Source: Hyphomonadaceae bacterium (GTDB taxonomy: Bacteria; Pseudomonadota; Alphaproteobacteria; Caulobacterales; Hyphomonadaceae). Taken from it: a DNA stretch of 64,000 nucleotides. Made by a program: the position numbers and the translations under genes. The notes beneath the pieces were generated by a model. It was not told where the DNA came from. It was given only the letters and a program-made list of their open reading frames with translations, and made no database searches. How positions within the stretch are numbered: position 1 is the first letter of the stretch; every line of letters starts with the position of its first letter. Shown here piece by piece: positions 4,009 through 47,216 of the stretch. The stretch is taken from NCBI GenBank assembly GCA_022844345.1, contig JALHLU010000015.1, forward strand, positions 9,680-73,679, written 5' to 3'.

Positions 4009-6048
4009 TCAAGCAGCACCCGACGATTGCTGTCTCGCGCCGGTCCGCGGAGTTGCTGACCACGGGTCCCGATAGGCCAGGAGCCGAAGCGCGTTTGCAA
4101 CAACCAGCAAGGTCGAGCCCTCGTGGAAAATGATGGCGGCGCCGATCTGCAGGCCGAACAGGGTCGATGGAATCAGGACCGCGACGACGCCAAGGCTGAC
4201 CCAGAGATTCTGCTTGATGATCGCGCTCGTCTTGCGGCTGAGGCCAACGACAAACGGCAAGTGCGTCAGGTCGTCGGCCATCAAGGCGACATCCGCCGTT
4301 TCAAGCGCGACATCCGATCCGGCGGCGCCCATCGCGATCCCGACGGTCGCCTTCGCGAGCGCGGGTGCGTCGTTGACCCCGTCACCCAGCATTGCGACCT
4401 TGCCTTCCTCCTTCACGAGGTCGCCAATCGCCGTTACCTTGTCCTCAGGCATCAGCCCGCCCTTGGCGTCGGTCAGACCGACTTCTTTCGCGATAGCATC
4501 GCCAACGCTCTGATTGTCGCCCGTCAGCATCACCATTCGTTTGATGCCGAGCTCTCGGAGGCGCGCGATAACCTCCCGCGCTTCCGGCCGGGGCGTATCC
4601 ATCAGGCCAAGAATTCCGAGAAACTCCTGATCCCGACGCACCACCATGACCGTGCGTCCAGCCTGCTCCAGCGCCAGGGCTTTCGCGCGGATATCGTCGG
4701 GCAACGCCGCGCCGCTGCTCCCGTCAAAAAGTCCGGGTTTGCCAATCCAGACTTCCCGGCCGGCCACCCTGCCCTTGACGCCCTTGCCCGTAATTCCTTC
4801 GACCCCGTCAGCTTTCGGCACGTCAACGGCGCCGAGCTTCTCACGTCCGTCGCGCACGACAGCGGCGGCTAGCGGATGATCGCTTAGCTCCTCCACAGCA
4901 ATGGCATGCTGAAGGAGTTCGACCTCCTGTATGGCGCCGAGCGGAATGACATCCGTCAGCCGTGGCTTGCCCTCAGTCAGGGTTCCGGTTTTGTCGAAGG
5001 CGATAGCTTTCAGCGTGCCGAGATTCTCAAGCGGCTCCCCTCCCTTGATCAGAACGCCGCCGCGACCCGCGCGGGCGATGCCGCTCAGGATCGCGCTTGG
5101 CACCGAGATGGCGAGGGCGCACGGGCTGGCCGCAACGAGAACCGCCATCGCGCGATAGAAACTTGCCGCAAAAGGCTCGTCGATGACGGTCCAGGCAAAC
5201 ATCAGGAGCGACACACCGATCAAGACAGCCGGCACGAAGATGCGTTCCAGACGGTCGGTAAACTGTTGAGTCGGCGAGCGCTGCGACTGCGCCTCGGCCA
5301 CAAGCTTTGCAACGCGCGCCAGGGTCGATTCCTGCGCCAGCCGCGCAACCCATACTTCGAGCGCGCCGGGTCCGTTGATCGTGCCTGCGAAGACTTTCGT
5401 CTCCGGACCAGCCTTGGCGAAGTCGTCGGCTGACGGGAGTGGTGAAGCAAACGGCCGCTTGTCGACCGGGACACTCTCCCCTGTTACCGGCGATTGATCG
5501 ATGCTGCTCTCGCCGACAATGACCAGGCCATCGGCCGGCAGGCGTTCGTTCGGTTTGACGATGACGATGTCGCCAACCACCAGCTGGGCCACAGGTATTT
5601 GCTCTGTCACGGCTCCGCGCCGCACGATCGCGAGTTCCGGAGCCAGTTTTCCCAGGGCTTCGATGGCTTTGCGCGCGCGACCCATCGCATAGCCTTCGAG
5701 CGCGTGGCCGAGACTGAAGAGCGCAAGCAGGAGCGCCCCTTCCGACCAGTGCCCAAGGATCGCCGCTCCTATCGCTGCTGCGATCATCAGCGTGTCGATC
5801 TCGAAGCGGCCGCGCCTCAGATTGTCGAGCGCTTCGCGAACGGTAAAGAAGCCACCCAGCAGATAGGCGGCGGCGTAGGCTACGATTGCGGGCTCTTTGG
5901 CCCAGGCAGTTTCGACCAGCCATCCAATCGCCAAGGCAACAGCGGACAGGATTGCGAAGGCCAGCTCAGTGCGTTCGCCCAGAATTCCCCCGTGGACGTG
6001 TTCGTCGTTGGGATGATTGGAACCCTCAGCGTGATTGTGGTCAGCCAT
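4009..6048 (-). CDS. P1B-4-type heavy-metal ATPase (Co/Zn/Cd class, CzcP/CoaT-like)
   Basis: 679 aa with DKTGTLT and [11 protein letters not shown] motif (VAASPCALAIS) instead of CPC, and HEGSTLLVV in the last TM helix. His-rich N-terminus (HNHAEGSNHPNDEHVH) and no HMA domain. Confidence 0.9.
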   Translation of the reverse strand: MADHNHAEGSNHPNDEHVHGGILGERTELAFAILSAVALAIGWLVETAWAKEPAIVAYAAAYLLGGFFTVREALDNLRRGRFEIDTLMIAAAIGAAILGHWSEGALLLALFSLGHALEGYAMGRARKAIEALGKLAPELAIVRRGAVTEQIPVAQLVVGDIVIVKPNERLPADGLVIVGESSIDQSPVTGESVPVDKRPFASPLPSADDFAKAGPETKVFAGTINGPGALEVWVARLAQESTLARVAKLVAEAQSQRSPTQQFTDRLERIFVPAVLIGVSLLMFAWTVIDEPFAASFYRAMAVLVAASPCALAISVPSAILSGIARAGRGGVLIKGGEPLENLGTLKAIAFDKTGTLTEGKPRLTDVIPLGAIQEVELLQHAIAVEELSDHPLAAAVVRDGREKLGAVDVPKADGVEGITGKGVKGRVAGREVWIGKPGLFDGSSGAALPDDIRAKALALEQAGRTVMVVRRDQEFLGILGLMDTPRPEAREVIARLRELGIKRMVMLTGDNQSVGDAIAKEVGLTDAKGGLMPEDKVTAIGDLVKEEGKVAMLGDGVNDAPALAKATVGIAMGAAGSDVALETADVALMADDLTHLPFVVGLSRKTSAIIKQNLWVSLGVVAVLIPSTLFGLQIGAAIIFHEGSTLLVVANALRLLAYRDPWSATPRTGARQQSSGAA

Positions 6049-6703: not shown

Positions 6704-9700
6704 CTACTCTGCCGGCTGCAGCGCGGGTTCGGATCCGCCGCGTTGCCCTTGGGCCGGCTTGCGCTTGAGAACGAGCCTGCAAATTGCCGGCAGAACGAAC
6801 AGCGTGAGCGCCGTGGCGGTTATCAATCCGCCGATCACGACAGTCGCCAATGGCCGCTGCACTTCGGCGCCCGTTTCGGTCGCCAAGGCCATCGGCACGA
6901 AGCCAATGGCGGCAACGAGGGCAGTCATCAGAACAGGGCGATACCGCTCGATGGCGCCCTCGATGATCGCTACATCCAGGGCGATACCAGCGTCGAGGCG
7001 CTTGCGGATGCTGGTCATCATCACCAGACCGTTCAGCACAGCCACGCCCGACAAAGCGATGAAGCCAACTGCCGCGGAAATCGAGAAGGGCATCCCGCGG
7101 AGCACCAGCGCAAATACCCCGCCAGCAAGCGCCAACGGCACGGCCGAGAAGACTGCAAGCGCCGGCGCGATACCACCGAGAGCCATGTAGAGCAGCGCCA
7201 GGATGAGGACGAAGCAGATCGGAACGACGACTCCCAGGCGCGCCGACGCGGCCTGGAGGTTCTCGAACTGACCGCCCCACGCGATGTAGGCGCCTGCCGG
7301 AAGTTCGATCTGCGCCACTTTGGTCTGAGCTTCGGTGACAAAGCCGCCCAGGTCCCGGCCCCGGATGTTGGCCTGCACGACGATGCGCCGCTTGCCATTC
7401 TCGCGGCTGATCTGGTTCAGCCCTTCTGTGAAGGAGAACTCGGCCAGAGACCGTAGCGGGACGCTCAGTCTTTGCTGACCTTCTACGGGCGGCAGCATTA
7501 CGGGCAGCGCGCCGATCGAATTGACATCGTTGCGCAGCGAGTCCGGAACTCGGACGATGATATCGAAGCGACGGTCTCCCTCGAAGACGAGACCGGCTTC
7601 TCGTCCGCCAAGGGCGGAGGCGACAGCATCGGCAACCTCCTCGATGGTGAGCCCATTTCTTGCGATGGCGTCGCGGTTAAACTTGACGTCCAGAATCGGG
7701 AAGCCTTGGGTCTGTTCGACTTTCACATCTGCCGCGCCATCGATGGTTTGGAGCGCTTCAGCAATTTGCTGTGCGGCAGGTCCTAGTACGTCGAGATCGT
7801 CGCCATAGAGCTTGACGGCGACGTCTGAGCGAACGCCCGAGATAAGCTCATTGAAGCGCAGCTCGATCGGTTGGCTGAACTCAAAAGCATTTCCAACCTC
7901 CGCAGAAATTGCCGCCTCGATTTTGGCGACAAGCTCCTCCTTCGTGATCTTCTCCGGCCACTCATGCTCGGGCTTTACGATCACAAATCCGTCCGAGATG
8001 TTGACGGGCATTGGATCAGCAGCGACTTCCGCGGTCCCCGTCTTCGACATGACGCGTTCGACTTCCGGCAATGCCACAATGGCTTGCTCCACACGCTTTT
8101 GCATGTCGATTGACTGGTAAAGCGACGTCGACGGAATCCGAAGCGACTGAACCGCAAGATCCTTTTCGTCGAGCTGCGGCGTAAACTCCTGGCCCAGTGT
8201 GGTAAACAGATATCCGGCCACCACGAAGATAGCGGCTCCAGCTCCGATCACAGGCAAGGGCGCCCGCACGGCGGCCCGCAACAACGGCACGTAACGCGCT
8301 TTCGTAACGCGAACGACAGTCACCTCTTTCTCAGCAACCTTGCCGCGGATGAGGATCGCCACCATGGCAGGCACGAAGGTAAGCGACAGGATGAAGGCGC
8401 CAGCGAGCGCCAGCATAACGGTGATCGCCATCGGCGAAAACAATTTTGCCTCAACGCCGGTGAACGCCAGAAGCGGCACGTAGACCAGGAAAATGATCGC
8501 CTGGCCGAAGACAGTCGGCTGAATCATTTCCTTGGAGGCCTCAGTTACCTCAAACAGCCGCTCCTGGAGTGACAGCAGCCTCCCCTCATGGTGCTGTCGC
8601 TCGGCCAAGCGTCGCAGGCAGTTCTCGACAATGATGACGGCGCCATCGACAATCAGGCCGAAATCCAGCGCGCCGAGGCTCATCAGATTGCCCGACACGC
8701 CGAGTTCGTTCATGCCGATCGCGGTCATCAGCATCGAGAGGGGAATGACAAGCCCGGTGATCAGGGCAGCGCGGAAGTTACCGAGCATCACAAAGAGAAT
8801 GACAACGACGAAAAGAGCGCCTTCGGCAAGGTTCTTCTCAACAGTCGCCACAGTTGCGTTCACCAGCATCGAGCGATCGTAGGCTACGTTCGCTTCGATG
8901 CCCGGCGGCAAGGACTTTGCGACTTCTACCAGCCGCGCTCCGACATCAGATGCAACCGTTCGGCTGTTGGCGCCTGTCAGCATGAAGGCTGTGCCGATCA
9001 CGACTTCTTCGCCGTTCTTGGTGGCCGCCCCCGTGCGCAAGTCGCCGCCGATCTTGACTTCCGCGAGGTCCTGAACCGCGACCGGCACGCCTTCACGGTT
9101 GGCCACCACCGCGCGGCGAATCTCATCGAGGGTTCGCACACGCGCGTCTGCGCGGATCAGAAAGGACTCGCCTCCCCGCTGGAGGAAGTTGGCGCCGACA
9201 GACAGGTTGGCGCTCTCTAACGCCTGGGCGAGCTCCGCGAAGGACACGCCAAAGGCCGCAAGCTTGGCCGGGTCGGGTTCGATGACATACTGCTTCTCGT
9301 AGCCCCCGATAGAATCGATCCCCGCGACGTTCTCGATAGCGCGCATCTGGGGCCGGATGATCCAGTCCTGCACAGTCCGGAGGTAGGCGCCGCGCGCGAC
9401 CTCGTCTGCCAGAGTTTCACCTTCAACCGTCAGGAAGGTTCCATCAGGTTGCAAGCCAGGTTTGCCGGCGTTGGCGGCAACGAAGGCTGCATCCGGTTTG
9501 GCGAACTCGACCGTCCACATGAAGATGTCGCCAAGGCCCGTGGTGATCGGACCGATGGTCGGTTGAATGTCAGCGGGAAGCGCGTCGCGTGACTGGGCGA
9601 GGCGTTCGGTAACCTGCTGCCGCGCGAAGTAGATGTCAGTGCCTTCGGTGAACACGGCCGTCACCTGGCTGAAGCCATTGCGTGAGAGGGAGCGCGTGCT

Positions 9701-9940
9701 TTCAAGCCCGGGGATGCCCGAAAGCGCTGTCTCGATCGGGAACGTCACGCGTTTTTCGATCTCGAGAGGTCCGAGCTCGGGATCCGACGTGTTTATCTGC
9801 ACCTGTTTGTTGGTGATGTCGGGAACAGCATCGATCGGCAGTCGAATGAGGTTGTAAACGCCAAACGTTGCGACGAGCAGGGTCAGAAAGACCACGACGT
9901 AGCGGGCGCGAACCGAGAAGGACAGAATGCGGGCAATCAT
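6704..9940 (-). CDS. czcA: HME-RND inner-membrane efflux pump, CzcA family
   Basis: 1078 aa with 12-TM RND architecture. Carries the [15 protein letters not shown] signature of divalent-cation HME-RND pumps. Confidence 0.93.
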   Translation of the reverse strand: MIARILSFSVRARYVVVFLTLLVATFGVYNLIRLPIDAVPDITNKQVQINTSDPELGPLEIEKRVTFPIETALSGIPGLESTRSLSRNGFSQVTAVFTEGTDIYFARQQVTERLAQSRDALPADIQPTIGPITTGLGDIFMWTVEFAKPDAAFVAANAGKPGLQPDGTFLTVEGETLADEVARGAYLRTVQDWIIRPQMRAIENVAGIDSIGGYEKQYVIEPDPAKLAAFGVSFAELAQALESANLSVGANFLQRGGESFLIRADARVRTLDEIRRAVVANREGVPVAVQDLAEVKIGGDLRTGAATKNGEEVVIGTAFMLTGANSRTVASDVGARLVEVAKSLPPGIEANVAYDRSMLVNATVATVEKNLAEGALFVVVILFVMLGNFRAALITGLVIPLSMLMTAIGMNELGVSGNLMSLGALDFGLIVDGAVIIVENCLRRLAERQHHEGRLLSLQERLFEVTEASKEMIQPTVFGQAIIFLVYVPLLAFTGVEAKLFSPMAITVMLALAGAFILSLTFVPAMVAILIRGKVAEKEVTVVRVTKARYVPLLRAAVRAPLPVIGAGAAIFVVAGYLFTTLGQEFTPQLDEKDLAVQSLRIPSTSLYQSIDMQKRVEQAIVALPEVERVMSKTGTAEVAADPMPVNISDGFVIVKPEHEWPEKITKEELVAKIEAAISAEVGNAFEFSQPIELRFNELISGVRSDVAVKLYGDDLDVLGPAAQQIAEALQTIDGAADVKVEQTQGFPILDVKFNRDAIARNGLTIEEVADAVASALGGREAGLVFEGDRRFDIIVRVPDSLRNDVNSIGALPVMLPPVEGQQRLSVPLRSLAEFSFTEGLNQISRENGKRRIVVQANIRGRDLGGFVTEAQTKVAQIELPAGAYIAWGGQFENLQAASARLGVVVPICFVLILALLYMALGGIAPALAVFSAVPLALAGGVFALVLRGMPFSISAAVGFIALSGVAVLNGLVMMTSIRKRLDAGIALDVAIIEGAIERYRPVLMTALVAAIGFVPMALATETGAEVQRPLATVVIGGLITATALTLFVLPAICRLVLKRKPAQGQRGGSEPALQPAE

Positions 9941-9977
9941 GAGTCGATGCTCTCTACGTGTCTATTGATCACGGATG

Positions 9978-11243
9978 TCAGTGGTCGTGTCCCGCATCGC
10001 CCTTGCCGAGTTCGGCCTTCAGGACGAAAGCCTTGAGCCCGGCAATGGTCTGGCCGGCCTGTAGGCCTTCCACGATCTCGACACGCCCGCCTCCGCGCTG
10101 GCCAACAATGACGGGGGCCGCAAGGAATCCGTGTTCCGTACGCACAAACACCACGTCTCGCCCTTCGACGTTTTGCACAGCCTCTTCCGGAACAACGAAA
10201 CCGGTCCCTGTTCCCGCCTGACTGGCAGGTCGAACAAGGGCCCGCGCGTATTGCCCGGGCTGGAGCGACGCTGTTGCATTGGCGAGCTCAAGAACGACAG
10301 TCGCTGCCCGGCTCGCGGCATCCACAGAGGGCGTGACAGCCCGCACCTTGGCGGCAAATGTCTTCCCGTTTGCTTCGATTGTGGCCGGATCACCGGGCCG
10401 AATGCGCTGCGTATCCAACACGGGTACGGCGGCTTCGATCTGGATTTTCGACGGGTCAGAGATGCGGAACAATTCCGTATCCGGTGAAACATACGCGCCA
10501 AGGATTGCGGTTGGCGCAACAGCTGTGATGCGGCCGTTGATTGGGCTGGCAATCGCAACGGACTGACCGTCGGCAGAAACGCGCGCCGCGCGCGCGGACG
10601 ATTCGGCGCGACGAAACTCAGCCTCGGCTTGGGAGAGTTCGGCCTGCGCCGTCTCGAAGTCCTGGCGCGAGGTGACTTTCGATTCGAACAGCGTCTTCTC
10701 GCGTTCGAAGGTGGTCTTCGCCAGATCGAGACGGGATCTCGCGCTCGAAAGCGCGGCTGACAGGGCTGCAGCGTCGGGGCTCAGCACGAGCGCCACGGTC
10801 TCACCCCGGCTCACTGCATCGCCAAGGCGTTTGCGGATGTCGGTTATAGCTCCGGCGGCGCGCGCGGTTAGAATGGCTTCGCCGCTGGGAGCTGCGACAA
10901 CAGTCGCCTGTGCAGTGATTTCGGATCCGAGGCTGCCCGGCGCGACCGTGATCAGGGCGATGCCTGCCCGCTCGATCCCATTGGCATCAATCTCGACCTC
11001 CCCCTCCGCATGTTCTTCTCCCGCCTCGCCCTCATCTCCCTCGTGGCCGGACTCTTCGCCAGCGTGATCGTCGTGATCGGCGACGACCGAAGCGGTGGCG
11101 CCCAGTTCGGCTGCGTGCGCCTCGGGGCTTTCGCCAACATGATCACGATCACCGCCGAAGAAGACGACGCCGGCCGTCAGCCCCACCGCCAAGAGCGCCG
11201 CAGCCGCGGCCCCGATCAGCAAATTCTGCCTGGAGAAGGTCAT
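9978..11243 (-). CDS. czcB: RND periplasmic adaptor (membrane fusion protein), CzcB family
   Basis: 421 aa with an N-terminal TM anchor. His/Asp/Glu-rich stretch (DHDDHAGEESGHEGDEGEAGEEHAEGE), then an HlyD-like barrel-sandwich and beta-barrel. Confidence 0.9.
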   Translation of the reverse strand: MTFSRQNLLIGAAAAALLAVGLTAGVVFFGGDRDHVGESPEAHAAELGATASVVADHDDHAGEESGHEGDEGEAGEEHAEGEVEIDANGIERAGIALITVAPGSLGSEITAQATVVAAPSGEAILTARAAGAITDIRKRLGDAVSRGETVALVLSPDAAALSAALSSARSRLDLAKTTFEREKTLFESKVTSRQDFETAQAELSQAEAEFRRAESSARAARVSADGQSVAIASPINGRITAVAPTAILGAYVSPDTELFRISDPSKIQIEAAVPVLDTQRIRPGDPATIEANGKTFAAKVRAVTPSVDAASRAATVVLELANATASLQPGQYARALVRPASQAGTGTGFVVPEEAVQNVEGRDVVFVRTEHGFLAAPVIVGQRGGGRVEIVEGLQAGQTIAGLKAFVLKAELGKGDAGHDH

Positions 11244-11342
11244 TCTAGTTGCCCTTGGAAAGCGTCGGCGGCGTCGCTGAGCGGACTCGGCCGGGAAGAT
11301 TGAACGGGATGCGGATGGCGATGGTGCGATACATGGTGCTGA

Positions 11343-12587
11343 TCAGTTTGCGTTGGCGCGAATAAGCGCTGCAGCTGCGCGTGCGCGCGCCAGCCTGGCG
11401 TCGATCGATGCATTGCGAATGCTCGCAAAGGCATCCTCTGCGTCGAGGACGTCGATCAACTGAAAGCGACCAGCCTCGTATCCGATCTGCGCGAGGCTTA
11501 GCGCCTCCTCAGCCTGACGAACCGCCTGGTTTTCAAGCGCCGCGGCGCGCGCATCAGCCGCTTCAAAGGCGGAGCGCGCGTCGTTGATCCTTCGCACCAT
11601 TTCAGCAAGTGCGATGTTCAACTGCAGCTCCGCGGCCCTGTCGTCCGCCCGAGCGGCGGCGATGGCGCCGCCATTCATGTTCTGGATCGGGATCGGAATG
11701 CTGATGCCGGCGATCCATGCCTGTTCCCCGGTCGACTCAAATCGCCGCAGGCCCCCACTGACCGTCACATCGACCCAGGCATTGGCCTTTTCCAGCCTGA
11801 GCGCCGCTTCAGCCGCGTCGTGCTCGGCGACCGCCAGACGATAGTCCAGCGTATCTGTGGGAGAGGTGTTCAGACGTTCGTCAGGCTGCTGGAACTCCCA
11901 GGGTCCGACGGCGTCGATTGCGCTCTCGGCGCCCCCCCACAGGACCGCAAGGCCACGCTGTGCGGCAGCCAGTTCGGCAGACGCAATACTGAACTGCGCT
12001 TCTGCTTGTGCGGCCAGAGCTTGCGCCCGCAGCACGCGCAGCGGCGGCTCTCGACCTGCGTCCACAAGTGTCTGTGCGAGATCGGACAGTTTCCTCGCGC
12101 GCTCCAGCGCGGCGCGCGCCAGATCCAGACGCTCCTCGGCGGCGGATAGTTCGGCGAAGCGCTCGCGTACGGTCAGATCAAGGTCAGCCCGAGCAATACG
12201 GCCACGAACAGCGACCGCATCCGCCTGCTTGCCCGCAGTTTCGCTGCGAGCTTCGCGTTTGCCGCCGAGTTCGAGTTGCTGGGAAAGGCCGATCGTTGAC
12301 TCCGCGCTGTCCATGCCCCTCAAGACGCCGCTGCCCGAGAAATTCTCGACGGTGTAGCTGGCCTCGGGATTGATGCCCGCGCCGGCCTGGGTCTGCCGGC
12401 CGCGTGCGGCCTCGACCTGGGCGTCCGCAATCTCGACGACCGGCGAGGTCGTGCGTGCACGATCCAGCGCTTCGGCCAGCGTCAGTGGGGTTGGCGCAGC
12501 CTGCGCCCACGCTGCTCCCATCGGAACCATCGCCGCCAGCGCCCAGCTAAGCGCTACGCGTCCGCAGACGCGAGTTGTCGATTGCAT
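11343..12587 (-). CDS. czcC: outer-membrane efflux factor (TolC/CzcC family)
   Basis: 414 aa with a signal peptide. Two OEP repeats rich in A/E/R coiled-coil sequence. Sits upstream of czcBA. Confidence 0.9.
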   Translation of the reverse strand: MQSTTRVCGRVALSWALAAMVPMGAAWAQAAPTPLTLAEALDRARTTSPVVEIADAQVEAARGRQTQAGAGINPEASYTVENFSGSGVLRGMDSAESTIGLSQQLELGGKREARSETAGKQADAVAVRGRIARADLDLTVRERFAELSAAEERLDLARAALERARKLSDLAQTLVDAGREPPLRVLRAQALAAQAEAQFSIASAELAAAQRGLAVLWGGAESAIDAVGPWEFQQPDERLNTSPTDTLDYRLAVAEHDAAEAALRLEKANAWVDVTVSGGLRRFESTGEQAWIAGISIPIPIQNMNGGAIAAARADDRAAELQLNIALAEMVRRINDARSAFEAADARAAALENQAVRQAEEALSLAQIGYEAGRFQLIDVLDAEDAFASIRNASIDARLARARAAAALIRANAN

Positions 12588-12654
12588 TGGAATTGCCTGA
12601 AATCAGAGTGTCAGCTCTACGCATGCGATCATGCGCGCGCGGTTACACTTCGAG

Positions 12655-13038
12655 TCAGGCCTTCGGCGGGCGTTCGAGGCCGACGGATACGTGCACGAGG
12701 GCCGCTATCTTTGTGATCGGGGTCGCGGCGGTGGCGCTTGCTGCAGGCACCGGTGCGGTAGTGTCACTGCTCTTGAAGGGAGTCGAATGATGGCAGTGAC
12801 CATGGACGCAGTGCTGGTCTTCACCGGGCAGCCGTGACTCATGATCGGCGCCTCCTGGAGCTGGTTCAACAGATGCTCCAGCCAATTCCGGAGACGCGGC
12901 ATCGATTTCGACTGTGAGCGAGAACTCGTCGCCAGCACAGACGGCGGCATCAGCCATGGGCGCGCCAACAAGCACGACTGCAGCCAGCACAACTTGCGCC
13001 GCCTTCATCAGAGCTTGCAGGGTTGATCCAAAGGACAT
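12655..13038 (-). CDS. small secreted Cys/His-rich protein preceding czcC (CzcI-like position)
   Basis: Signal-like N-terminus (MSFGSTLQALMKAAQVVLAAVVLVGAPMADA), a DQHCVHGHCHH cluster, and a C-terminal LERPPKA. The start codon is uncertain (13071, 13038 or 13008). Confidence 0.55.
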   Translation of the reverse strand: MSFGSTLQALMKAAQVVLAAVVLVGAPMADAAVCAGDEFSLTVEIDAASPELAGASVEPAPGGADHESRLPGEDQHCVHGHCHHSTPFKSSDTTAPVPAASATAATPITKIAALVHVSVGLERPPKA

Positions 13039-14947: not shown

Positions 14948-15340
14948 ATGTATCCAATAGTCGCGCTCGCCGAAGCCGCCGGCGCAAAGGTCGAGACGAT
15001 ACGCTATTACGAACGCATCGGCCTCCTGCCCGAACCTGGCCGCACGCGAAGCAACTATCGGAGCTATAGCGAGGTCCATCTCGGCCGTCTGAGTTTCATC
15101 CGCCGCGCCCGCGATCTCGGGTTCACACTTGATCAGAGTCGCGAGCTGCCCGAGCTGGCAGAGAGCCGGAACAGTGATTGCGGAATTGTCGACGCCATCG
15201 GGCAGGATCATCTGCGTGACGTCGAACGCAAGATCGCGGACCTGAAGGCATTGCGACGCGAACTGTGCGACCTGATTGGCCAATGTCAGAAGGGCGCGAT
15301 TGCAGAGTGCCGGATCATCGGGGCGCTTTCGCCGCGATAG
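14948..15340 (+). CDS. MerR-family metal-responsive regulator (paralogue of 2803-3207)
   Basis: The ATG at 14948 aligns with the paralogue's start; the TTG at 14936 is an alternative. HTH is LAEAAGAKVETIRYYERIGLL. Same Cys triad (DCG...QCQKGAIAEC). Confidence 0.88.
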   Translation: MYPIVALAEAAGAKVETIRYYERIGLLPEPGRTRSNYRSYSEVHLGRLSFIRRARDLGFTLDQSRELPELAESRNSDCGIVDAIGQDHLRDVERKIADLKALRRELCDLIGQCQKGAIAECRIIGALSPR

Positions 15341-15510
15341 ATGGCGGGCGCCCTGATGCGATTGTCAGGTAAAGCCGACAAGCAACTTGGCTTGGGGAAC
15401 AACGCAAGACGGACAAGAGAAGCTGCGCTTGTTGAAGCCCGCCCTGCCCGCTCATCTCCTCGCTTACTGCAAGCGCGCATTGCGTCGCCAATCTGATTTG
15501 GCTTCGCAAA

Positions 15511-16488
15511 CTATCTGCGGTCCTCGCCAACCAGCGCTCCGGGGGAGAACACGGTCCTGGCGATCTCGTTCAAGAATTTTTCGCATTCCGCGATGAGGTC
15601 ACCGTAGGCCGATGCTTCCATTGGCAGATGCGACCCCGCCCTCAGTTGAACGAAGCGTTTATTTGTCTGGATTTTGTCGAAGACCGCGAGGCTGAGCTCG
15701 GTCGGCGTCCAGACGTCTTGTCCAGGGTGCACAAGCAATAGCGGACAGTTGAGCGTCCAGTCCTTGATGCGGTGCTGATGGAGCGTCCGAAAGAAGCGCG
15801 CCGGCTTCCAGCTCTTGCCGATGTGCGGGTCATTCTGGAAGTATGCCTGCATGCGCGTATTGCTGCTCATGGCGGCGAGGGGCGTGACGAGCGAAAGCGG
15901 CAATACCATCCGATCAAAAAGCCAGGGTATGGCCGCCATGCTGAACAGGCTGAGCTGGCCCAGCCAGCGCCAGCGGGCCGCGCGGATGAAGGTGGACCGG
16001 TCCGACAGATCGAGGAGCGTCGTTGCGATGACGCCTCTGATGTTTTGGCTCGCCTGCGCTGCGAGGAAGGCCGTTAGCCCGCCCATCGACAGCCCCATAA
16101 TGACGGTCGGCGCCCGCTCGGCGTCCGCGATATCAGAGAGCACTGCCGGCCATTCAGAATACTCGCCCCTGTAACCGGTTGCGGGCTGGGTCAGCCCGTA
16201 GCCCGGCAGGTCCGGTGCAAGCACTTTCCATCCGCGTTGGGACAGGGGTTCGGCGAGTGGCGCAAGAATGCGTCCATTGCCGCCTCCGCCATGTACAAGA
16301 AGCAGCGTGCCCTTGGTGACGCCGGAAGCGGGCCAATGATCCATGCGGACCTTATGGCCCCGGATCACCAACTGGATTTCCTCCGGCTCGGTGGTGAGAA
16401 CGATCCCGAATTCTTCTGCGAGAATTTCGCGGTAGATCGTCCATGATGGGGCGTGGCGAAAGTGCTTCATGCCCCTAATGTCGAGCAA
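15511..16488 (-). CDS. alpha/beta-fold hydrolase
   Basis: 325 aa. HGGGGNG oxyanion-type motif and a GLSMGG nucleophile elbow. Resembles lysophospholipase/monoacylglycerol-lipase enzymes. Confidence 0.8.
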   Translation of the reverse strand: MLDIRGMKHFRHAPSWTIYREILAEEFGIVLTTEPEEIQLVIRGHKVRMDHWPASGVTKGTLLLVHGGGGNGRILAPLAEPLSQRGWKVLAPDLPGYGLTQPATGYRGEYSEWPAVLSDIADAERAPTVIMGLSMGGLTAFLAAQASQNIRGVIATTLLDLSDRSTFIRAARWRWLGQLSLFSMAAIPWLFDRMVLPLSLVTPLAAMSSNTRMQAYFQNDPHIGKSWKPARFFRTLHQHRIKDWTLNCPLLLVHPGQDVWTPTELSLAVFDKIQTNKRFVQLRAGSHLPMEASAYGDLIAECEKFLNEIARTVFSPGALVGEDRR

Positions 16489-19618: not shown

Positions 19619-20353
19619 TCAAGCGACGAAGTAGCCGACGAGCTGATAGCCCATCAGGACGAAACCGAGGGTCATGACAACCGTATTGGCCAGATAGGCG
19701 TGCTTCCAGAAGCTGGGCGTCTTGCGCCAGAAACCCATCACGATGAGAATGCCACCCAGGGCCAGAAGCTGACCCAGTTCAACACCGATGTTGAAAGCGA
19801 TCAGGTTGGCGACGAGGCCGTCAGGCGACATCTCGAAGTCCTGCAGCTTGGTCGCAAGACCAAAGCCGTGGAACAGGCCAAAGACAAGCGTCGCAGCCTT
19901 GGTATTTGGCTGGAAGCCAAACCAGCGCTGGTAGGCGCCCATATTGTCGAGCGCCTTATAGACGACTGAGAGACCGATGATCGCATCCACGAGGTAAGAG
20001 CTGACGCTGATATTGCTGAGCACGCCGAACAGCAGCGTCACAGAATGTCCAATCGCGAACATCGTCACGTAGATGCCGATATCCTTCATCTTGTAGAGGA
20101 AGAAGATCACGCCAAAGAGGAAGAGCAGATGGTCGTATCCCGTCACCATGTGCTTGGCGCCAAGATAGACGAAAGGCAGGAACACGATTCCGCTCGTCTC
20201 CTGAATGTAGCCCTTGTCGCCAGCTTCAACGCCGTGGGCGAAGGCTGGCTGGGAGAACAGCAACACCAGAAGCAGCGACGCGAGGACCCACCGGTGAACG
20301 TAGATCCAGGACGCCGCTGGATACGCGGATCTTTGGAACAGTGCGTCAATCAT
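19619..20353 (-). CDS. HupE/UreJ-family membrane protein (Ni/Co transporter family)
   Basis: 244 aa counted from the ATG at 20353, with GGAG 6 nt upstream. Signal-like N-terminus ending AFAHG. Multiple TM helices, GYDHLLFLFG and GHS motifs. Confidence 0.75.
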   Translation of the reverse strand: MIDALFQRSAYPAASWIYVHRWVLASLLLVLLFSQPAFAHGVEAGDKGYIQETSGIVFLPFVYLGAKHMVTGYDHLLFLFGVIFFLYKMKDIGIYVTMFAIGHSVTLLFGVLSNISVSSYLVDAIIGLSVVYKALDNMGAYQRWFGFQPNTKAATLVFGLFHGFGLATKLQDFEMSPDGLVANLIAFNIGVELGQLLALGGILIVMGFWRKTPSFWKHAYLANTVVMTLGFVLMGYQLVGYFVA

Positions 20354-20770
20354 GCGGAACTCCATCGACGACCCGAAGCTGCAGCACGCCGCCTGCCCCA
20401 AGCGCCTCACCTGGGATAGTGGCGGACACGCGGGCCGTCCCCATCTCCCGCAAGGAAGTGAAAGGATACAGGGTGGCGTCCTGCGTTGCGACAACGACGC
20501 CTGCATCGTTGAGAACCTCGACATGAACGTGTTCACGCAGTGGCTCGCGCGGCAGCGCGCTGCGATCGACCTGCCCCGCCAGCTTGATGGTCTGCCCATC
20601 ATGTCGCGCCTCGACGCCCCATATCTTGATCTGCTCGCCAAGTACGAGTTTTACCGGAACCAGCGATTCCGAACTGGTTACGGTTGTACAGGCGGCAGCC
20701 GCGAGTAGCGCGGACAGAACCGCAGGTTTACTGACCATCGCTTCTCTCCAGAGTCTGATTTGCAGGTTCA

Positions 20771-20771
<1 letters not shown>
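20346..20771 (-). CDS. small lipoprotein of unknown function downstream of the RND gene (paralogue of 6120-6536)
   Basis: 141 aa. Its ATG overlaps the RND stop codon by 1 nt (TGATG). Lipobox-like LLAAAAC. Shares the WGV and EHVHVE motifs with the paralogue. Confidence 0.65.
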
Positions 20772-25211
<4,440 letters not shown>

Positions 25212-25215
<4 letters not shown>

Positions 25216-26471
25216 TGGACCGCGCCGGCAGCATAGCCACCGAGCAAGCGTTTGAGCGCCGTGCGGGCGCGATGATAGGAATCAAGGGCGGAGATGCGCT
25301 GGAGCCGGGCAGTCGACAGGACGCGCTGCGCATCCAGCACATCCAGGTACGAGAAGCCGCCCTGATTGTATCCTTCCCGAGCACGCTCAACCGCTTCTTC
25401 GGCCGCCGGAATCAGGCGCTCATCGATGGCGACAATCTCCCGGGCCGCGATGTTCATCTGAGACCTCGCCGACGCGGCCTGCCTTTCGATGTTCCGCTGG
25501 AGCACCTCACCTTCGAGACGGGCGCGGGAGCTTTCGGCTGAAGCCCTCGCCACCGCCCCGCTGTTGTCATCGTTGACGCCCAGAGGAATTGAGAAGCCTA
25601 CGACGAACGCTGCCTCGCTTCCGTCCCTGAAATACCGGAGACCCGCTGAAACCGTGGGGTCGAGTGTCGACCGCGCACGCTCTACGGCAATGCGGGCCTC
25701 GGCTTCCTGCTGCGCTGCTCGCGCGACGGCAATTTCAGGGGCAAGCGATGCGCTGTCCACGAAGAGCCCAGACACGGTATCGAACGTCGACATTTCGACC
25801 TGGAAATTGCTCGCCCCGCCCCAGTACGTGGCGAGATGATCGCGGGCAGCGGCGTCTGCCAGACGCGCATTTTCAACAGCAATCTCGGCGTCCGCCACCA
25901 GGGTATTCGATCGGGAAGAAGCCAGCAGCGGATCGCGCGCTGCCTCAACTCGCCGTTGAACGGTAGCTGCGACCTCACGCGCCAGCGCCAGACGCTCTTC
26001 GGCGACCTGAAGGTCGGCCTGTGCGCGCTGAACGTCGACGTAGGCAATTTCTACATCATGGAGCAGATCCTGGCGGGCAACATCGCCGAGAGCGCGGATG
26101 CTGTTCCCTTGGCGCACGGCAAGCTGCGTTCTCGCTTCACGATCTCCTCCCCATTCAAGTGTCTGGTTGAAAGTGAGCGTCGCTTCCGTGCGGTCGATAC
26201 CCTGGTACAGGCCCGTGCCGAGAGCGTTCTCGAGCAGGAAATCGATCGAGGGGTTGATGCCGCGATCCGCCTGACGAACGCCAGCGTCTGCCGCTTCACG
26301 GGCAGCTTCGCTGGCCCGGACGACAGGCGTCTCGCCCAGCGACCGCGCAAATGCGTCGGCCAGGCTGATCTGCGGGCCGTCGGCAGCAGCCTGCCCGTAC
26401 GCTACCTGCCCCGATGCGAGGCAAGCTGCGCACGCAGCCCCAACAAGGGCTGCATAGTGATGAGATGACAC
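25212..26471 (-). CDS. outer-membrane efflux factor (TolC/CzcC/CnrC family)
   Basis: 419 aa with a signal peptide and OEP repeat architecture. First large gene of the second RND operon. Confidence 0.88.
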
Positions 26472-26529
26472 GGAAAACTCCTCTGTCGCAAACCGTCAGT
26501 GCCCGCAAAACGCGGACGCATTGTCTGGA

Positions 26530-26934
26530 TCAGAGGAAAGTGCGCGGCGGCTTCTTGAGTGGCGAGAAGTGGCCGGAGACGCGAACAATGGATTGTTCGG
26601 ACCGGTTCAGAACCGCCGTGGAGATCAGTTCCGGAATTGCAGAAGACCCGCTGACGGTGGTGAAGGACGCGACCGCATGAACATGCATGCCGCCGTGTTC
26701 GGCGGGCGCGGTGTCGTTGCCGAGGTCGTCGTCGTGATGATCGAGGGCTTCGTCGTGGTCCTGGCCGTGGGGTTCATCATGATCATCATGGCCTGCATCC
26801 AGAGCGACGGCATGGATGGCGTAGCCAGTAGCGTCGTGATGATCGTGCGCATGCGCCGGGGCAGCCGCAATGAGGCCATAGCTTGCAAAGGCAAGCGTCA
26901 GGCAAAGGCTCACGAGGCGCCGGGCAAATGACAT
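26530..26934 (-). CDS. small secreted His/Asp-rich protein preceding the OMF gene
   Basis: 134 aa counted from the ATG at 26934. Signal peptide MSFARRLVSLCLTLAFASYGLIAAAPAHA. Contains HDHHD...HDDHDEPHGQDHDEALDHHDDD...HGGMHVH and ends in PLKKPPRTFL. Confidence 0.6.
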   Translation of the reverse strand: MSFARRLVSLCLTLAFASYGLIAAAPAHAHDHHDATGYAIHAVALDAGHDDHDEPHGQDHDEALDHHDDDLGNDTAPAEHGGMHVHAVASFTTVSGSSAIPELISTAVLNRSEQSIVRVSGHFSPLKKPPRTFL

Positions 26935-40976: not shown

Positions 40977-43900
40977 TTAATCTCCAGAGGGTGCGATCCG
41001 GGTTGTTGCCGACGCGATGTGGGCGCGGCCGCGGCGCCGGATCATGAGGTAAGCCGCGGGAATAACAAAGAGAGACAGCAGCGGGGCGGTGATCATGCCG
41101 CCAACCAGCGGAGCAGCAATCCGGCGCATGACTTCCCCGCCTGCACCGTCTGTCCAGAGAATAGGCAGGAGGCCTGCAAGGACGACGGCGACGGTCATGG
41201 TTTTCGGCCGCAAGCGCAGCAGCGCCCCCTCACGGATCGCCGCCAGGATGGTCACCCCGTCAAGCGCTTCGCCCCGCCGTATGCGATCGTCCAGGGCGTT
41301 GCGCAGATAGAGAAGCATCACCACGCCGAACTCGGCAGCAAGGCCTGCAAGCGCAATGAAGCCCACCCCGACAGCCACCGACAGGTCATAGCCAAGGAGG
41401 TAGACCAGCCAGACGCCGCCGGTCAGCGCGAACGGGATGCTGGCCATGACAATGAGGGCTTCATCGAAGCGCCGGAAGGTCAGGAAGAGCAGCACGAAGA
41501 CGATGGTGAGCGTCACCGGGCCGATCACGGCGAGACGTTCGCCGGCGCGGGCGAGATACTCGAACTGTCCTGCAAACGAGGCCGTGACCCCGGCTGGAAG
41601 TTTTGCCTGCGCGACCGCATCACTCAGCTCCCCAACGACTGAAGCGATGTCGCGGCCGCGTACGTCGACATAGACGAAAGCGGCGAGGCGCCCATTCTCG
41701 CTCCGGATCATCGAAGGCCCGTCCGAGATGCTGATGCGCGCAACATCGTTCAAGGTCAGCAGCAGTCCCATGTCGGTAATGATCGGCAGCTGAGCCAGCC
41801 GCTCCGGCGTGTCCCGTAGCTCGCGCGGATAGCGCAGACTGATCGGATAGCGCGCCCTGCCCTCGACAAACTGACCGATCACCTCGCCGCCTACGGCCCC
41901 GGACACGATCTCCTGCACATCGGCAATGTTGAGGCCAAGGCGGCTTGCGGCCACACGATCAATCTCGATGTCGAGAAAGCGGCCGCTCCCCAGGCGTTCA
42001 GCGGCAGCCGACGAAACGCCGGGCACGCGCTTCGCCAACTGTTCCACAAGGCGAGCAGCTTCGTCGAGCGCGCCCAGTCCTGCCCCGCTGAGCTTTACGC
42101 CGATCGGGCTTTTGACGCCTGTCGCCTGCATGTCGATACGGTTTCGGATCGGAGGGACCCAGACATTGGTCAGGCCCGGGACCCGGACGCGTGCATCGAG
42201 CTCTGCGATGATCCGCTCAGTCGTCATGCCGGCGCGCCATTCAGACATTGGACGCAACCGGATCGTCGTCTCGAACATCTCGATCGGCGCGGGGTCAGTG
42301 GCCGTCTCGGCGCGTCCTGCCTTGCCGAAGACACGCTCGACTTCCGGGACTGTTTTGATGAGCCGGTCCGTCTGCTGAAGGAGTTCGGAGGCCTTGGCAG
42401 CCGACAGGCCAGGTTGCGCGGTCGGCATGTAGAGCAGATCGCCCTCGTCCATCGCCGGCATGAACTCCGCGCCAGAGCGCACCAGTGGCCACGCCGCAGT
42501 TGCAAGCACCAGAACCGCGGCCACAATGACGAGCGCCGGCCGCTTGAGTGCAAGGTCGAGCGCCGGACGGTAGGCAGAAGCCAAGGCCCTGTTCACCGGA
42601 TTTGCGTGCTCGTCCGGTATGCGTCCCCGGATCCAGTAGCCCATCAGCACCGGCGTCAGCGTGACAGCGAGGGCGGCCGCCGCCGCCATCGCGTAGGTCT
42701 TGGTGAAGGCAAGCGGTGCAAACAGCCTTCCCTCCTGAGCCTCCAGCGTAAACACGGGGAGGAAGGAGAGCGTGATGATCATGAGACTGAAGAACAGCGC
42801 CGGGCCGACCTCCAGCGAGGCCTGCGTAATGACCTGCCAGTGGTCGGTTCCAGACGGCATTTGTCCGTCATGATCTGCGCGCCACTGTTCGAGCCGCTTG
42901 TGGGCATTCTCGACCATGACAATCGCGGCATCCACCATCGCGCCGATGGCAATGGCGATGCCGCCGAGCGACATGATGTTGGCCTCGACGCCTTGTGCGC
43001 GCATGACCAGGAACGCCGCTGCGATCCCGAGCGGCAAGGTGACGATGGCCACGAGCGCCGACCTCAGGTGGAAGAGGAAGAGCGCGCACACGATCGCGAC
43101 GACGATGAATTCCTCGATCAGCTTGTGGGACAGGTTTTCGACTGCCCGATCGATCAGGATCGAACGATCATAGGTGGTGACAATCTCGACGCCTTGCGGG
43201 AGGCGCTCTTTCAGGCTCGCCAGCTTCGCCTCGACGCCAGCAATCACCTCGCGCGGGTTGGCGCCGGTGCGCATGACAATGACACCGCCGGCGACCTCGC
43301 CTTCGCCATCGAGTTCGGCAATCCCACGCCGCATCTGGGGTCCGACTTCGACCCAGGCCACATCGCCAAGCGTCACCGCCGTGCTGGCGCCAGCCGCCTT
43401 GACCGGGATGCTCTGAAAATCCTCCAGGGTCCGCAGATAGCCGCTTGCGCGCACGACGTGGTCCGCCTCAGCGATCTCGATGGATGCGCCGCCGGCTTCC
43501 TGGTTGGCGCGCGCGACAGCCTCCGCCACCATGCGCTGCGAGATCGCGTAGGCGGCCATCTTCTGCGGATCGAGGACGATCTGATACTGCCGGACCATGC
43601 CGCCAATGGACGCGACTTCAGCGACGCCGGGCACGGATTTGAGTTCGAACGCGAGCAGCCAGTCCTGCAGGGCGCGGAGCTGGCCCAGGTCGTGGGCGCC
43701 GGTGCGATCGACCAACGCATACTGGTAGATCCACCCGACGCCGGTGGCGTCCGGTCCAATGCTCGAGCGGGCCGCCTCGGGCAAGCGCTCGCGGGCCTGA
43801 CTCATGTATTCGAGCACGCGCGAGCGCGCCCAATAGAGATCAACACCTTCCTCGAAGATCACATAGACGAAGCTGTCGCCGAAGAAGGAATAGCCGCGCA

Positions 43901-44144
43901 CGCTGCGCGCACCTGGCACGGACAGCATGGCCGCGCTCATCGGATAAGTAATCTGATCCTCGACGATCTGCGGCGCCTGTCCTGGATAACTGGTCCGCAC
44001 CACGACCTGGACATCCGAGAGGTCCGGCAAGGCGTCGACGGGTGCTGACCTGATCGCCAACGCGCCTGCACCCGCAAGCGCAAGTGCTGCGAGCACGACG
44101 AGGAAGCGGTTGGCGACCGACCAGCGGATGATTGCGGCGATCAT
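40977..44144 (-). CDS. cusA: Cu(I)/Ag(I) HME-RND efflux pump CusA
   Basis: 1055 aa. [15 protein letters not shown] signature of the monovalent-cation class rather than DFG..DGA. Typical CusA N-terminus. Confidence 0.93.
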
Positions 44145-46806: not shown

Positions 46807-46868
46807 GTGATGTCCATGTATCGATGTGGATGCTTGCGACGCACGTCTTGCGCATCGCGCTCAAGCAA

Positions 46869-47216
46869 TCACGCCGTACGCGGCGGCCGCCAGAGCCCGG
46901 CTGGCGCCGTGGCATGCACCGCCTGCTGGTCGCGTGGAGATATGGCGACGGCGACCTCCACCCTTGCGGACTTCAGGATCGGCACGAGCGGTTCGACGGC
47001 ATGAGTCGCGCGGCAAGACTGTCCGAGCTGACACTCGATTGAATTGTCGTGATGGTCTGACGGCTGGGGCGCAGGCTGCTGGTCGGGGCAGCAATCATGC
47101 GAGGCCGAAGCAGCCTCGGCCTGCTTGTAGGGACAGGCTTGGCCCGCCCAAGCGCTCGCAGTCGCGCTGACGGCGAGTGAAATAACGAGCAGAATGGCGA
47201 ACCATAGACGGCGCAT
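46869..47216 (-). CDS. small secreted Cys/His-rich protein preceding cusC
   Basis: 115 aa counted from the ATG at 47216. Signal peptide MRRLWFAILLVISLAVSATASAWA. Contains SHDCCPDQQ...DHHDNSIECQLGQSC and ends in GLWRPPRTA. Confidence 0.6.
   Translation of the reverse strand: MRRLWFAILLVISLAVSATASAWAGQACPYKQAEAASASHDCCPDQQPAPQPSDHHDNSIECQLGQSCRATHAVEPLVPILKSARVEVAVAISPRDQQAVHATAPAGLWRPPRTA

Follow-up and report, generated by a model that had tools for sequence, protein, structure and literature searches.

A 64,000-nucleotide (nt) stretch of DNA from a Hyphomonadaceae bacterium (GenBank assembly GCA_022844345.1, contig JALHLU010000015.1, positions 9,680 to 73,679 of the forward strand), referred to in its whole length as the window, contains three operons for heavy-metal efflux pumps of the resistance-nodulation-division (RND) type. 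Each operon encodes an outer-membrane factor (OMF), a membrane fusion protein (MFP, or adaptor) and the RND pump itself, and each is headed by a small open reading frame (ORF) whose predicted product looks secreted and is rich in potential metal ligands. These three ORFs, here called leaders A, B and C, are the subject of this analysis. The leaders and the genes that follow them are, in coordinates of the window:

12655-13038, minus strand: leader A, 127 amino acids (aa), with C34 and H76-C-V-H-G-H-C-H-H84; ends GLERPPKA-stop
11343-12587, minus strand: OMF gene of operon A, IhpA-like/TolC, the putative regulated target
9978-11243, minus strand: MFP gene of operon A, CzcB/NccB-type
6704-9940, minus strand: RND gene of operon A (TIGR00914, 1525 bits)
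26530-26934, minus strand: leader B, 134 aa, with H28-A-H30 and H84-V-H86, His/Asp-only; ends PLKKPPRTFL-stop
25212-26471, minus strand: OMF gene of operon B
23950-25215, minus strand: MFP gene of operon B, IhpB-like adaptor
20771-24058, minus strand: RND gene of operon B (TIGR00914, 1561 bits)
19619-20641: HupE/UreJ gene of operon B (HupE_UreJ_2, PF13795, 189.8 bits)
46869-47216, minus strand: leader C, 115 aa, Cys-rich, with C28-P, H40-D-C-C-P and C62..L-G-Q-x-C68-R; ends GLWRPPRTA-stop
45574-46806, minus strand: OMF gene of operon C
44141-45577, minus strand: CusB-like MFP gene of operon C (CusB, 301 bits)
40977-44144, minus strand: RND gene of operon C (TIGR00914, 1275 bits)

An earlier, sequence-only reading of the window had placed three small, secreted-looking, Cys/His-rich ORFs before the three RND operons, and they are found on the minus strand at the positions that it gave. 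It had also assigned to all three a common architecture, and its elements (a signal-like N-terminus, a ligand core, a spacer and a tail) are directly confirmed; common descent is reached only through iterative search. The N-termini resemble Sec signal peptides by inspection, with a basic n-region, a hydrophobic stretch and then ADA, AHA or AWA. The proposal that ligand chemistry tracks the operon holds as judged from sequence motifs: Cys-rich leader C precedes the CusB-containing, Cu/Ag-type pump, His/Asp-only leader B precedes a divalent-type pump with HupE/UreJ, and leader A, with mixed Cys/His ligands, precedes a czc-type pump. The motif in transmembrane segment 4 is of the divalent type in operons A and B (DFGxxxDGAxxxVEN, as given for the B pump), and of the Cu/Ag type in operon C (AIGxxxDAAxxxVEN). 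Within the operons, the OMF and MFP genes overlap by 4 nt in B (25212-25215) and in C (45574-45577), as do the MFP and RND genes of C (44141-44144). Because of these overlaps, control of OMF translation could spread to the whole pump in operons B and C, and the arrangement suggests translational coupling of the entire pump to its first gene.

A search of a large protein collection gave 17-26 end-to-end homologues for each leader, and family alignments were made with 19 homologues (A), 27 sequences (B) and 18 sequences (C). These alignments back the start codons of all three leaders. Within the families, HCxHGHCH and GLERPPK are invariant in A; HAH, HVH and PLKxPPR..L in B; and C-P, HDCCP, C..LGQxCR and WRPP in C. 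Thus, the ligand cores quoted in the sequence-only reading are present and invariant, and loss of the C-terminal motif in homologues, which it had named as a possible refutation, does not occur in any of the families. Synteny with the cognate OMF orthologue is kept in all 31 related loci with enough flank (9 of 9 for A, 9 of 9 for B and 12 of 12 for C), mostly from metagenome-assembled genomes of Hyphomonadaceae/Caulobacterales.

The near-terminal tail is encoded as follows:

12661-12672, minus strand: RPPK codons of leader A (CGC CCG CCG AAG), putative ribosome-pausing site, 2 codons before the stop
26542-26553, minus strand: KPPR codons of leader B, putative pausing site, 4 codons before the stop
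46878-46889, minus strand: RPPR codons of leader C, putative pausing site, 3 codons before the stop

Codons of the tail vary synonymously among homologues. Family A uses CGC, CGT or CGG, then CCG, CCC or CCA, with AAG, AAA, AGG or CGA at the Lys/Arg position; in family B, CCG/CCC/CCT and AAG/AAA/CGG alternate with no change in the peptide; and in family C the peptide is likewise unchanged over CGG/CGT/CGA/CGC, CCG/CCT/CCC/CCA and CGT/CGA/AGG/CGC/CGG. Since the codons change synonymously while the peptide is kept, selection acts on the tail peptide. By comparison, of the 27,059 stop-to-stop frames in the genome with a length of 80 aa or more, only 282 (~1.0%) contain [RK]PP within their last 10 residues.

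A combined profile of the three families, searched against 1.84 billion cluster representatives, retrieved 316 representatives at E<=1e-3, nearly all aligned end to end and 108-145 aa long. Within the last 15 residues of the 144 best, [RK]PP is present in 142, and no tail reads R[AG]PP. The spacer of about 40 aa noted in the sequence-only reading is real and is sharper than had been described. Among 142 representatives with an [RK]PP tail and no more than 50% identity to one another, a Cys or His lies at position -43 relative to the first Pro in 117, at -42 in 77 and at -41 in 67, with a shoulder extending to -49; Cys and His are nearly absent from -20 to -38, and 2-4 residues follow the Pro-Pro in 135. 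The spacer is therefore a ruler of the family, as expected if the ligands need a defined position relative to the ribosome when the prolines are decoded. The distance from last ligand to first Pro is 40-45 residues in leaders A, B and C and in most of seven further paralogues of the genome, and 35-39 in two.

These paralogues reveal that the arrangement is not confined to the window. In the genome, nine RND genes score above the TIGR00914 cut-off, and there are twelve OMF genes. Ahead of every one of the nine OMF genes in heavy-metal RND clusters is a small ORF that combines a signal peptide and Cys/His residues with an [RK]PP tail, so that the shared tail claimed for the three window leaders extends to 9 of 9 leaders of metal pumps against the 1.0% background. 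Their endings are RPPKA, KPPRTFL, RPPRTA, WRPPRSI, KPPRPFL, RPPVPPPLA, LRPPRSS, PPIRPPLA and KPPIHPPSA. No such leader was found before the three other OMF genes (C11:1393, C1:134479 and C18:25136). Beyond the window, the six leaders that precede OMF genes of heavy-metal RND clusters, and one further leader-like ORF, are:

contig C13, 60520-60870: leader
contig C13, 79952-80380: leader
contig C17, 4685-5125: leader
contig C17, 11603-12085: leader
contig C17, 48150-48644: leader
contig C17, 47720-48052, minus strand: leader
contig C4, 198284-198646, minus strand: tenth leader-like ORF, 120 aa, ends GLRPPRA

The tenth ORF scores 15.4 bits against DUF2946 and 17.9 bits against CopL_fam, and it lies 69 nt before a gene for a 461-aa secreted, His/Met-rich protein with no Pfam match. 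The tail thus occurs before a non-OMF gene too in the same genome. A 'CopB-like' name considered for this 461-aa protein was dropped, as no Pfam match supports it. For five other genomic paralogues, CopL_fam is the top hit, end to end and below threshold (14-28 bits). Two of the leaders on contig C17 are placed differently from the rest: the ORF at 11603-12085 lies between an RND gene (8451-11579) and a second OMF gene, of the lipoprotein type (from 12259), and the ORF at 4685-5125 is separated from its OMF gene by a 151-aa secreted ORF (5133-5588).

The relation of the three families to one another and to curated families is remote. Pairwise BLASTP among A, B and C gives E values of 0.001-0.14, and pairwise hhalign among the families gives 0.006-0.16 with little aligned beyond the tail. 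The profile of family C alone did not recover A or B in a genome search, and tblastn of the three proteins against 72,556 plasmids gave no match. None of the three matches PF11162 (DUF2946; gathering threshold 23.7 bits) even at E<=10, and they do not have the DUF2946 layout of a CXXC and a RAPP motif about 45 residues apart, since the tail is [RK]PP[KR] and the ligand motifs are others; their ruler is comparable but has its peak at -43 from the first Pro. The end-to-end alignment of leader C with CopL_fam (NF033807) scores 16.9 bits, short of the 40 bits required, and neither A nor B matches this model. None of the three matches the CzcI models NF045614 and NF045615 (cut-off 100 bits); as a positive control, CzcI of Cupriavidus metallidurans CH34 scores 172.5 bits on the CzcI NCBIfam model. 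When 144 sequences, namely the three window proteins and 141 of the representatives, were scanned with curated families, 31 matched CopL_fam (best E 2.7e-9), 4 the Cupriavidus CzcI family (best E 1.4e-9) and 3 DUF2946 (E<=0.01), leaving about 105 of the 144 with no match to a curated family.

Iterative search connects these groups. A jackhmmer database was assembled from the scanned superfamily sequences, CzcI and SilD (pMOL30 of C. metallidurans CH34), and 47,882 decoy genome frames. Starting from any single window protein, the search converges on all three families, 146 others, and CzcI and SilD (E 1e-6 to 1e-8). It gave no false hits among the 47,882 decoys; only true paralogues were recruited from the genome frames. 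Because direct comparison is weak, homology among A, B and C rests on this iterative search. By their sequences, then, the three leaders appear to be remote relatives within a CopL/CzcI/SilD/DUF2946-like superfamily, outside every curated model. The sequence-only reading had likened their position to that of CzcI while calling the sequences very different. The positional likeness stands; the second half is true in part, as there is no score on the CzcI models, yet jackhmmer reaches CzcI. The comparison with CzcI and DUF2946 that it had called for has the same two sides: A, B and C fall below all thresholds, and a remote link exists through jackhmmer and through a few representatives.

Additional information is found in the RNA between each leader and its same-strand OMF gene:

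12588-12654, minus strand: intergenic RNA A, 67 nt between leader A and the OMF gene
26472-26529, minus strand: intergenic RNA B, 58 nt between leader B and the OMF gene
46807-46868, minus strand: intergenic RNA C, 62 nt between leader C and the OMF gene
26531-26538, minus strand: anti-Shine-Dalgarno sequence UUCCUCUG in leader B, made of the last two codons (TTC CTC) and the first two bases of the stop
26478-26485, minus strand: OMF Shine-Dalgarno sequence CAGAGGAG in RNA B, predicted to pair with the end of leader B

RNA A is predicted to form a GC hairpin enclosed by an outer stem; there, CCUGA (12654-12659, from the end of the last codon and the stop) pairs with UUUCAGG (12596-12602), a sequence that overlaps the OMF Shine-Dalgarno sequence. 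In this structure 93.7% of cells are paired versus 25-50% in slid controls, and the spacer is 69-84% identical versus 64-69% for the leader A ORF. In RNA B, UUCCUCUG and CAGAGGAG would form 8 consecutive pairs that are invariant in 9 distinct sequences, and even the third positions of the TTC and CTC codons of leader B are frozen. This pairing encloses a further helix and an inner hairpin (GUCCGC/GCGGRC) whose loop varies. The consensus structure has an energy of -29.5 kcal/mol, 97.4% of cells are paired versus 36-52% in slid controls, and the spacer is 82-98% identical, which in most loci is at least the conservation of both flanking genes. Overall, the spacers of A and B equal or exceed the neighboring genes in conservation. 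The predicted structures of RNAs A and B are conserved and plausible, not proven. RNA C is built otherwise: a GC-rich hairpin that starts 1-2 nt past the stop persists as the sequence changes, with three pairs changed on both sides, and the OMF start codon is buried in a mini-hairpin (CAUGC-N5-GCAUG, 46795-46810), the modeled probability of the AUG being unpaired being 0.00-0.17 in 12 of 14 loci. It may be the RNA, and not the protein, that accounts for the conserved N-terminus of the OMF in family C, M-R-x-A-W. An Rfam scan of the window detected no known RNA family. Intrinsic termination at the post-stop hairpins was considered and rejected because no U-run follows them.

The effect of a ribosome on these structures was modeled by stepping a 28-nt footprint codon by codon along each leader. 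For A, the probability that the Shine-Dalgarno sequence is unpaired is 0.30-0.35 over twenty codons and rises to 0.49 once the first Pro codon enters the P site; for B, it is 0.20-0.22 and then 0.37 with the Pro codons in the P site. Unmasking of the Shine-Dalgarno sequence in family C was entertained and rejected, as opening occurred only when all upstream RNA was masked and disappeared in the model with the footprint alone.

Exported leaders that sense periplasmic metal while still bound to the ribosome are a recent discovery. To our knowledge, only two copper-responsive leaders, CutF and CruR, have been dissected, neither of which controls an efflux pump, and we know of no experimental test of a member of the class that is linked to an RND pump. 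The CutF protein of Rhodobacter capsulatus is small and exported, carries a CxxxC site, has a C-terminus rich in Pro, and must be translated in cis and exported; with copper its co-translational export becomes slower, whereupon a stem-loop over the cutO Shine-Dalgarno sequence opens (PMC9973294). Both motifs of CutF are needed for regulation, and the protein is undetectable in vivo and acts only in cis (PMC9973294). Its tail is PEPEGPPPRL-stop; changing PPP to PAP abolishes copper regulation, elongation factor P is involved, and stalling melts the stem-loop that hides the cutO Shine-Dalgarno sequence (bioRxiv 10.1101/2025.02.05.636593). A survey of CutF-like proteins (Ozturk 2023, PMC9973294), defined as shorter than 150 aa with a signal peptide, a PP at most 15 residues from the end and a same-strand neighbor, collected 5,334 of them. 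Their commonest downstream neighbor is an RND OMF (OEP) gene, and His-only clusters adjoin HupE/UreJ (PMC9973294). SilD, CusD, CopL and CruR were placed in the same network, CzcI was noted to have no Pro motif, and CopL was described as cis-acting and needed for copper-induced copA expression (PMC9973294). In CruR (Roy 2022, PMC9426467), a RAPP motif lies 3 residues from the end, the spacing between ligands and RAPP is constant within 1-2 residues in more than 2000 proteins, and a change of the spacing by +/-5 residues breaks regulation. In the PURE system, CruR has been shown to arrest with its two Pro codons occupying the P and A sites (PMC12992588).

Leaders A, B and C share with these proteins a size below 150 aa, a Sec signal (by inspection), a Cys/His site, a near-terminal PP and a same-strand downstream gene, the properties used for the class (PMC9973294). 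From this architecture, they are with high probability members of the CutF-like (DUF2946-like) class of leader peptides. CutF itself (118 aa), which is compared here by its published description only, also has a Sec signal peptide, and its Cys motif precedes, by about 41-45 residues, a Pro run that is followed by a basic residue and 1-2 more; by the published numbering, C45 of the mature protein is 41 residues from the first Pro. Like the window leaders, it is encoded by the first gene of a metal-detoxification operon (cutFOG), with a short spacer and a stem-loop over the next Shine-Dalgarno sequence. It differs in its PPP tail, where the tail here is [RK]PP[KR], and in its target, a multicopper oxidase rather than the OMF of an RND pump; in addition, leader B has His/Asp ligands only, and in A and B it is the leader's own last codons and stop that supply the anti-Shine-Dalgarno strand. 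CruR (Bp2923 of Bordetella pertussis) is similarly an exported upstream ORF that heads a metal-homeostasis operon and has its ligand motif at a fixed distance from a near-terminal Pro-Pro. However, it combines RAPP with CXXC at 45 intervening residues, has a 162-nt spacer and acts through Rho, and copper relieves its stall and represses an uptake receptor.

The relatives in C. metallidurans CH34 (CzcI, SilD and CusD) resemble the window leaders in size, signal peptide, Cys/His core and location directly upstream of czcC or silC. Their cores are CGVCH in CzcI and CQAHCH in SilD, the latter comparable to HCHH in leader A. SilD has PRPPPR near its end, but the Pro run is 11-12 residues from the terminus, unlike that of A, B and C; CzcI lacks a Pro-Pro and ends in RAPDRPQWQRLA, which looks like a decayed RAPP-type motif. 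We know of no established mechanism for either CzcI or SilD. The model for CopL (Xanthomonas/Stenotrophomonas), CopL_fam, is the only curated one touched by the window proteins or their paralogues (leader C and the paralogues, always below threshold), but CopL precedes a multicopper oxidase gene, not an OMF gene. More distant parallels are the sequence-unrelated SecM, VemP, MifM, ApdA and ApdP, exported nascent chains with a C-terminal arrest motif whose stall remodels the mRNA and exposes the next ribosome-binding site; these monitor the secretion machinery, not metal.

By analogy with these systems, a mechanism can be proposed. The leader would be translated and threaded co-translationally through SecYEG. 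At the near-terminal [RK]-Pro-Pro-[KR] codons peptide-bond formation would be slow, with the Cys/His cluster about 41-49 residues behind the P site and already out of the ribosome tunnel. Binding of metal to the cluster (presumably Cu/Ag for Cys-rich C, and Zn/Co/Cd or Ni/Co for A and the His/Asp-only B) might remove a pull that normally eases the chain past the pause, and the pause would become longer. The paused ribosome would cover the last codons and the stop, which in A and B constitute the anti-Shine-Dalgarno strand, and the OMF ribosome-binding site would open. The OMF would then be translated, and through the 4-nt overlaps in operons B and C so would the adaptor and the pump. It is judged moderately likely that A, B and C are cis-acting, exported, metal-sensing leaders of the CutF type, one for each heavy-metal RND operon, working in this way. 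The specific step in which a metal-prolonged pause at [RK]PP exposes the OMF ribosome-binding site is given marginally less credence for A and B, and a lower one for C. Inferred only are the stalling of the ribosome, the binding of metal and the choice of metal, the direction of regulation, and the coupling of the leader to the OMF gene in family C.

Several observations weigh against this proposal. The arrest motifs that have been studied are PPP and RAPP (CutF and CruR), not RPP[KR] (bioRxiv 10.1101/2025.02.05.636593, PMC9426467), and no stalling followed when the CutF tail by itself was transplanted into a LepB reporter (PMC9973294). At a distance of 43 positions from the P site, a residue may still be within SecYEG and not yet in the periplasm. 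None of the three leaders passes the threshold of a Pfam or NCBIfam family, and the direct profile-profile comparison of the three families is weak. The jackhmmer link is evidence of the sort on which the definition of CutF-like proteins was based, but it is partly circular because its database had been pre-enriched by the combined profile. With respect to the RNA, the modeled opening of the Shine-Dalgarno sequence in A and B is modest, and the footprint model of C yields no opening (0.46-0.51 throughout) and no sequestration by the end of the ORF. No covariation was found in the A and B structures, because their spacers barely vary, and fold energies gave no significant gain over shuffled sequences (z -0.98 to -1.27).

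Other explanations have been considered. One is that coupling is independent of metal: the leader would be no more than an upstream ORF that, by being translated or by termination at its end, constitutively opens the OMF ribosome-binding site, the Cys/His core would be used otherwise or be idle, and control by metal would be transcriptional. The modeled Shine-Dalgarno opening is indeed about equal from the Pro codons to the last sense codon, and the anti-Shine-Dalgarno sequence overlaps the stop codon, as in ordinary coupling. Unexplained, however, are the invariance of the Pro-Pro tail under synonymous change, the ligands fixed at -41 to -49 in 142 divergent proteins, and the match between ligand chemistry and pump type; moreover, both CutF motifs are required for regulation (PMC9973294). 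This explanation is thought unlikely, even though it fares slightly better than those that follow.

The sequence-only reading had favored a docking role for the tail, on the OMF or the MFP. Here, the leader would be a stable periplasmic metal-binding protein, either a chaperone or a regulator, whose RPP[KR] tail docks on the OMF or the adaptor. A signal peptide, a ligand-rich core and strict linkage to an OMF gene all suit such a role, and the remote relative CzcI has traditionally been described as a periplasmic czc regulator (PMC9973294). Yet no fold is predicted. With the family alignments as input, AlphaFold returned a mean pLDDT (predicted local distance difference test) of 54 for leader A, with a helix at residues 3-25 (the signal peptide) and a small hairpin at HCVHGHCH, and of 53 for leader C, with a helix at residues 2-18; the predicted template modeling score (pTM) was 0.19. 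Leaders A and C are thus predicted to be disordered and a folded docking protein is not favored, evidence that is weak because the alignments are shallow. The same tail and ruler are present in relatives that head operons lacking an OMF gene (CutF-cutO, CopL-copA and the paralogue on contig C4). A fixed distance of 2-4 residues to the stop and of about 43 to the ligands answers no obvious need of docking and is what an arrest peptide requires, and CutF is undetectable in vivo and acts only in cis. Outside the two motifs, furthermore, divergence is faster in the leaders of family A (aa identity of 48-57%) than in their OMFs (70-78%). Since OMF-less relatives share the signature, the distance from tail to stop is fixed and the peptides look disordered, docking is the least supported of the earlier claims. 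In both relatives that have been studied, the Pro motif acts within the ribosome; the tail bears the hallmarks of the arrest motif of CutF and CruR (Pro-Pro beside a basic residue, close to the stop and at a set distance from the ligands), and the Arg-Pro-Pro is most likely a ribosome-pausing signal, not a docking site. The probability left to docking is small.

No greater probability is assigned to a logic of the CruR type, in which a default stall at RPP would shield the transcript from Rho termination or decay, and metal would relieve the stall and lower expression. CruR, a studied member of the class, works in this manner (PMC9426467), and family C has a post-stop hairpin without sequestration of the Shine-Dalgarno sequence; for this reason, control through RNA polymerase, Rho or RNA stability could operate in family C. 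Nevertheless, the sign would be wrong, as efflux pumps should be induced by metal. The spacers here are 58-67 nt, compared with 162 nt and a rut site in CruR, and the conserved pairing in A and B involves the Shine-Dalgarno sequence itself. Finally, the idea that the ORFs are chance open frames in GC-rich leader regions, to which the absence of a detectable strong Shine-Dalgarno sequence before the start codons of A, B and C and the lack of a curated family for A and B might point, is refuted as far as sequence evidence goes by end-to-end conserved homologues with motifs invariant under synonymous codon change, by the 316 cluster representatives, and by the 9 of 9 genomic association against a 1% background.

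The existence of the CutF-like class and the predominance of RND OMF genes as its partners were already known (PMC9973294). As read from the sequences, what appears specific to the present leaders is the strict [RK]PP[KR] tail and the -43 ruler, the invisibility of families A and B to Pfam and NCBIfam, a His/Asp-only member on a divalent-metal pump, an anti-Shine-Dalgarno strand made from a leader's own last codons, and a set of nine leaders in one genome, one for each metal pump. Two-component sensors usually control heavy-metal RND pumps. A more far-reaching and rather doubtful reading is that the R-P-P-[KR] tail with the -43 ruler marks a distinct, largely unannotated branch of nascent-chain metal sensors, in which private, pump-specific switches, diversified by ligand chemistry (Cys for Cu/Ag; His/Asp for Ni/Co/Zn), would serve nine RND systems in place of two-component sensors. 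If this were true, the His/Asp-only family B would give the first case of an RND pump tied to an arrest-peptide sensor of a divalent metal other than copper.

The genome provides a compact natural panel of nine or ten paralogues with differing ligand sets, next to pumps of differing predicted specificity, which could show whether nascent-chain sensing extends to Zn, Co, Ni and Cd and what sets specificity. Families A and B offer a simple candidate RNA switch, as the anti-Shine-Dalgarno strand is the leader's last codons. An annotation model based on the tail-plus-ruler signature would label several hundred protein clusters. Two names now in use concern relatives of these leaders. A homologue of leader B (P0037, 134 aa, 85% identical) is named 'G3E family GTPase' in one public source, evidently a misannotation from a low-complexity His tract, and czcI on pMOL30 (15176-15523) bears the RefSeq name 'CDF family cobalt-zinc-cadmium transporter CzcI', which is unfit for a secreted peptide of 115 aa.

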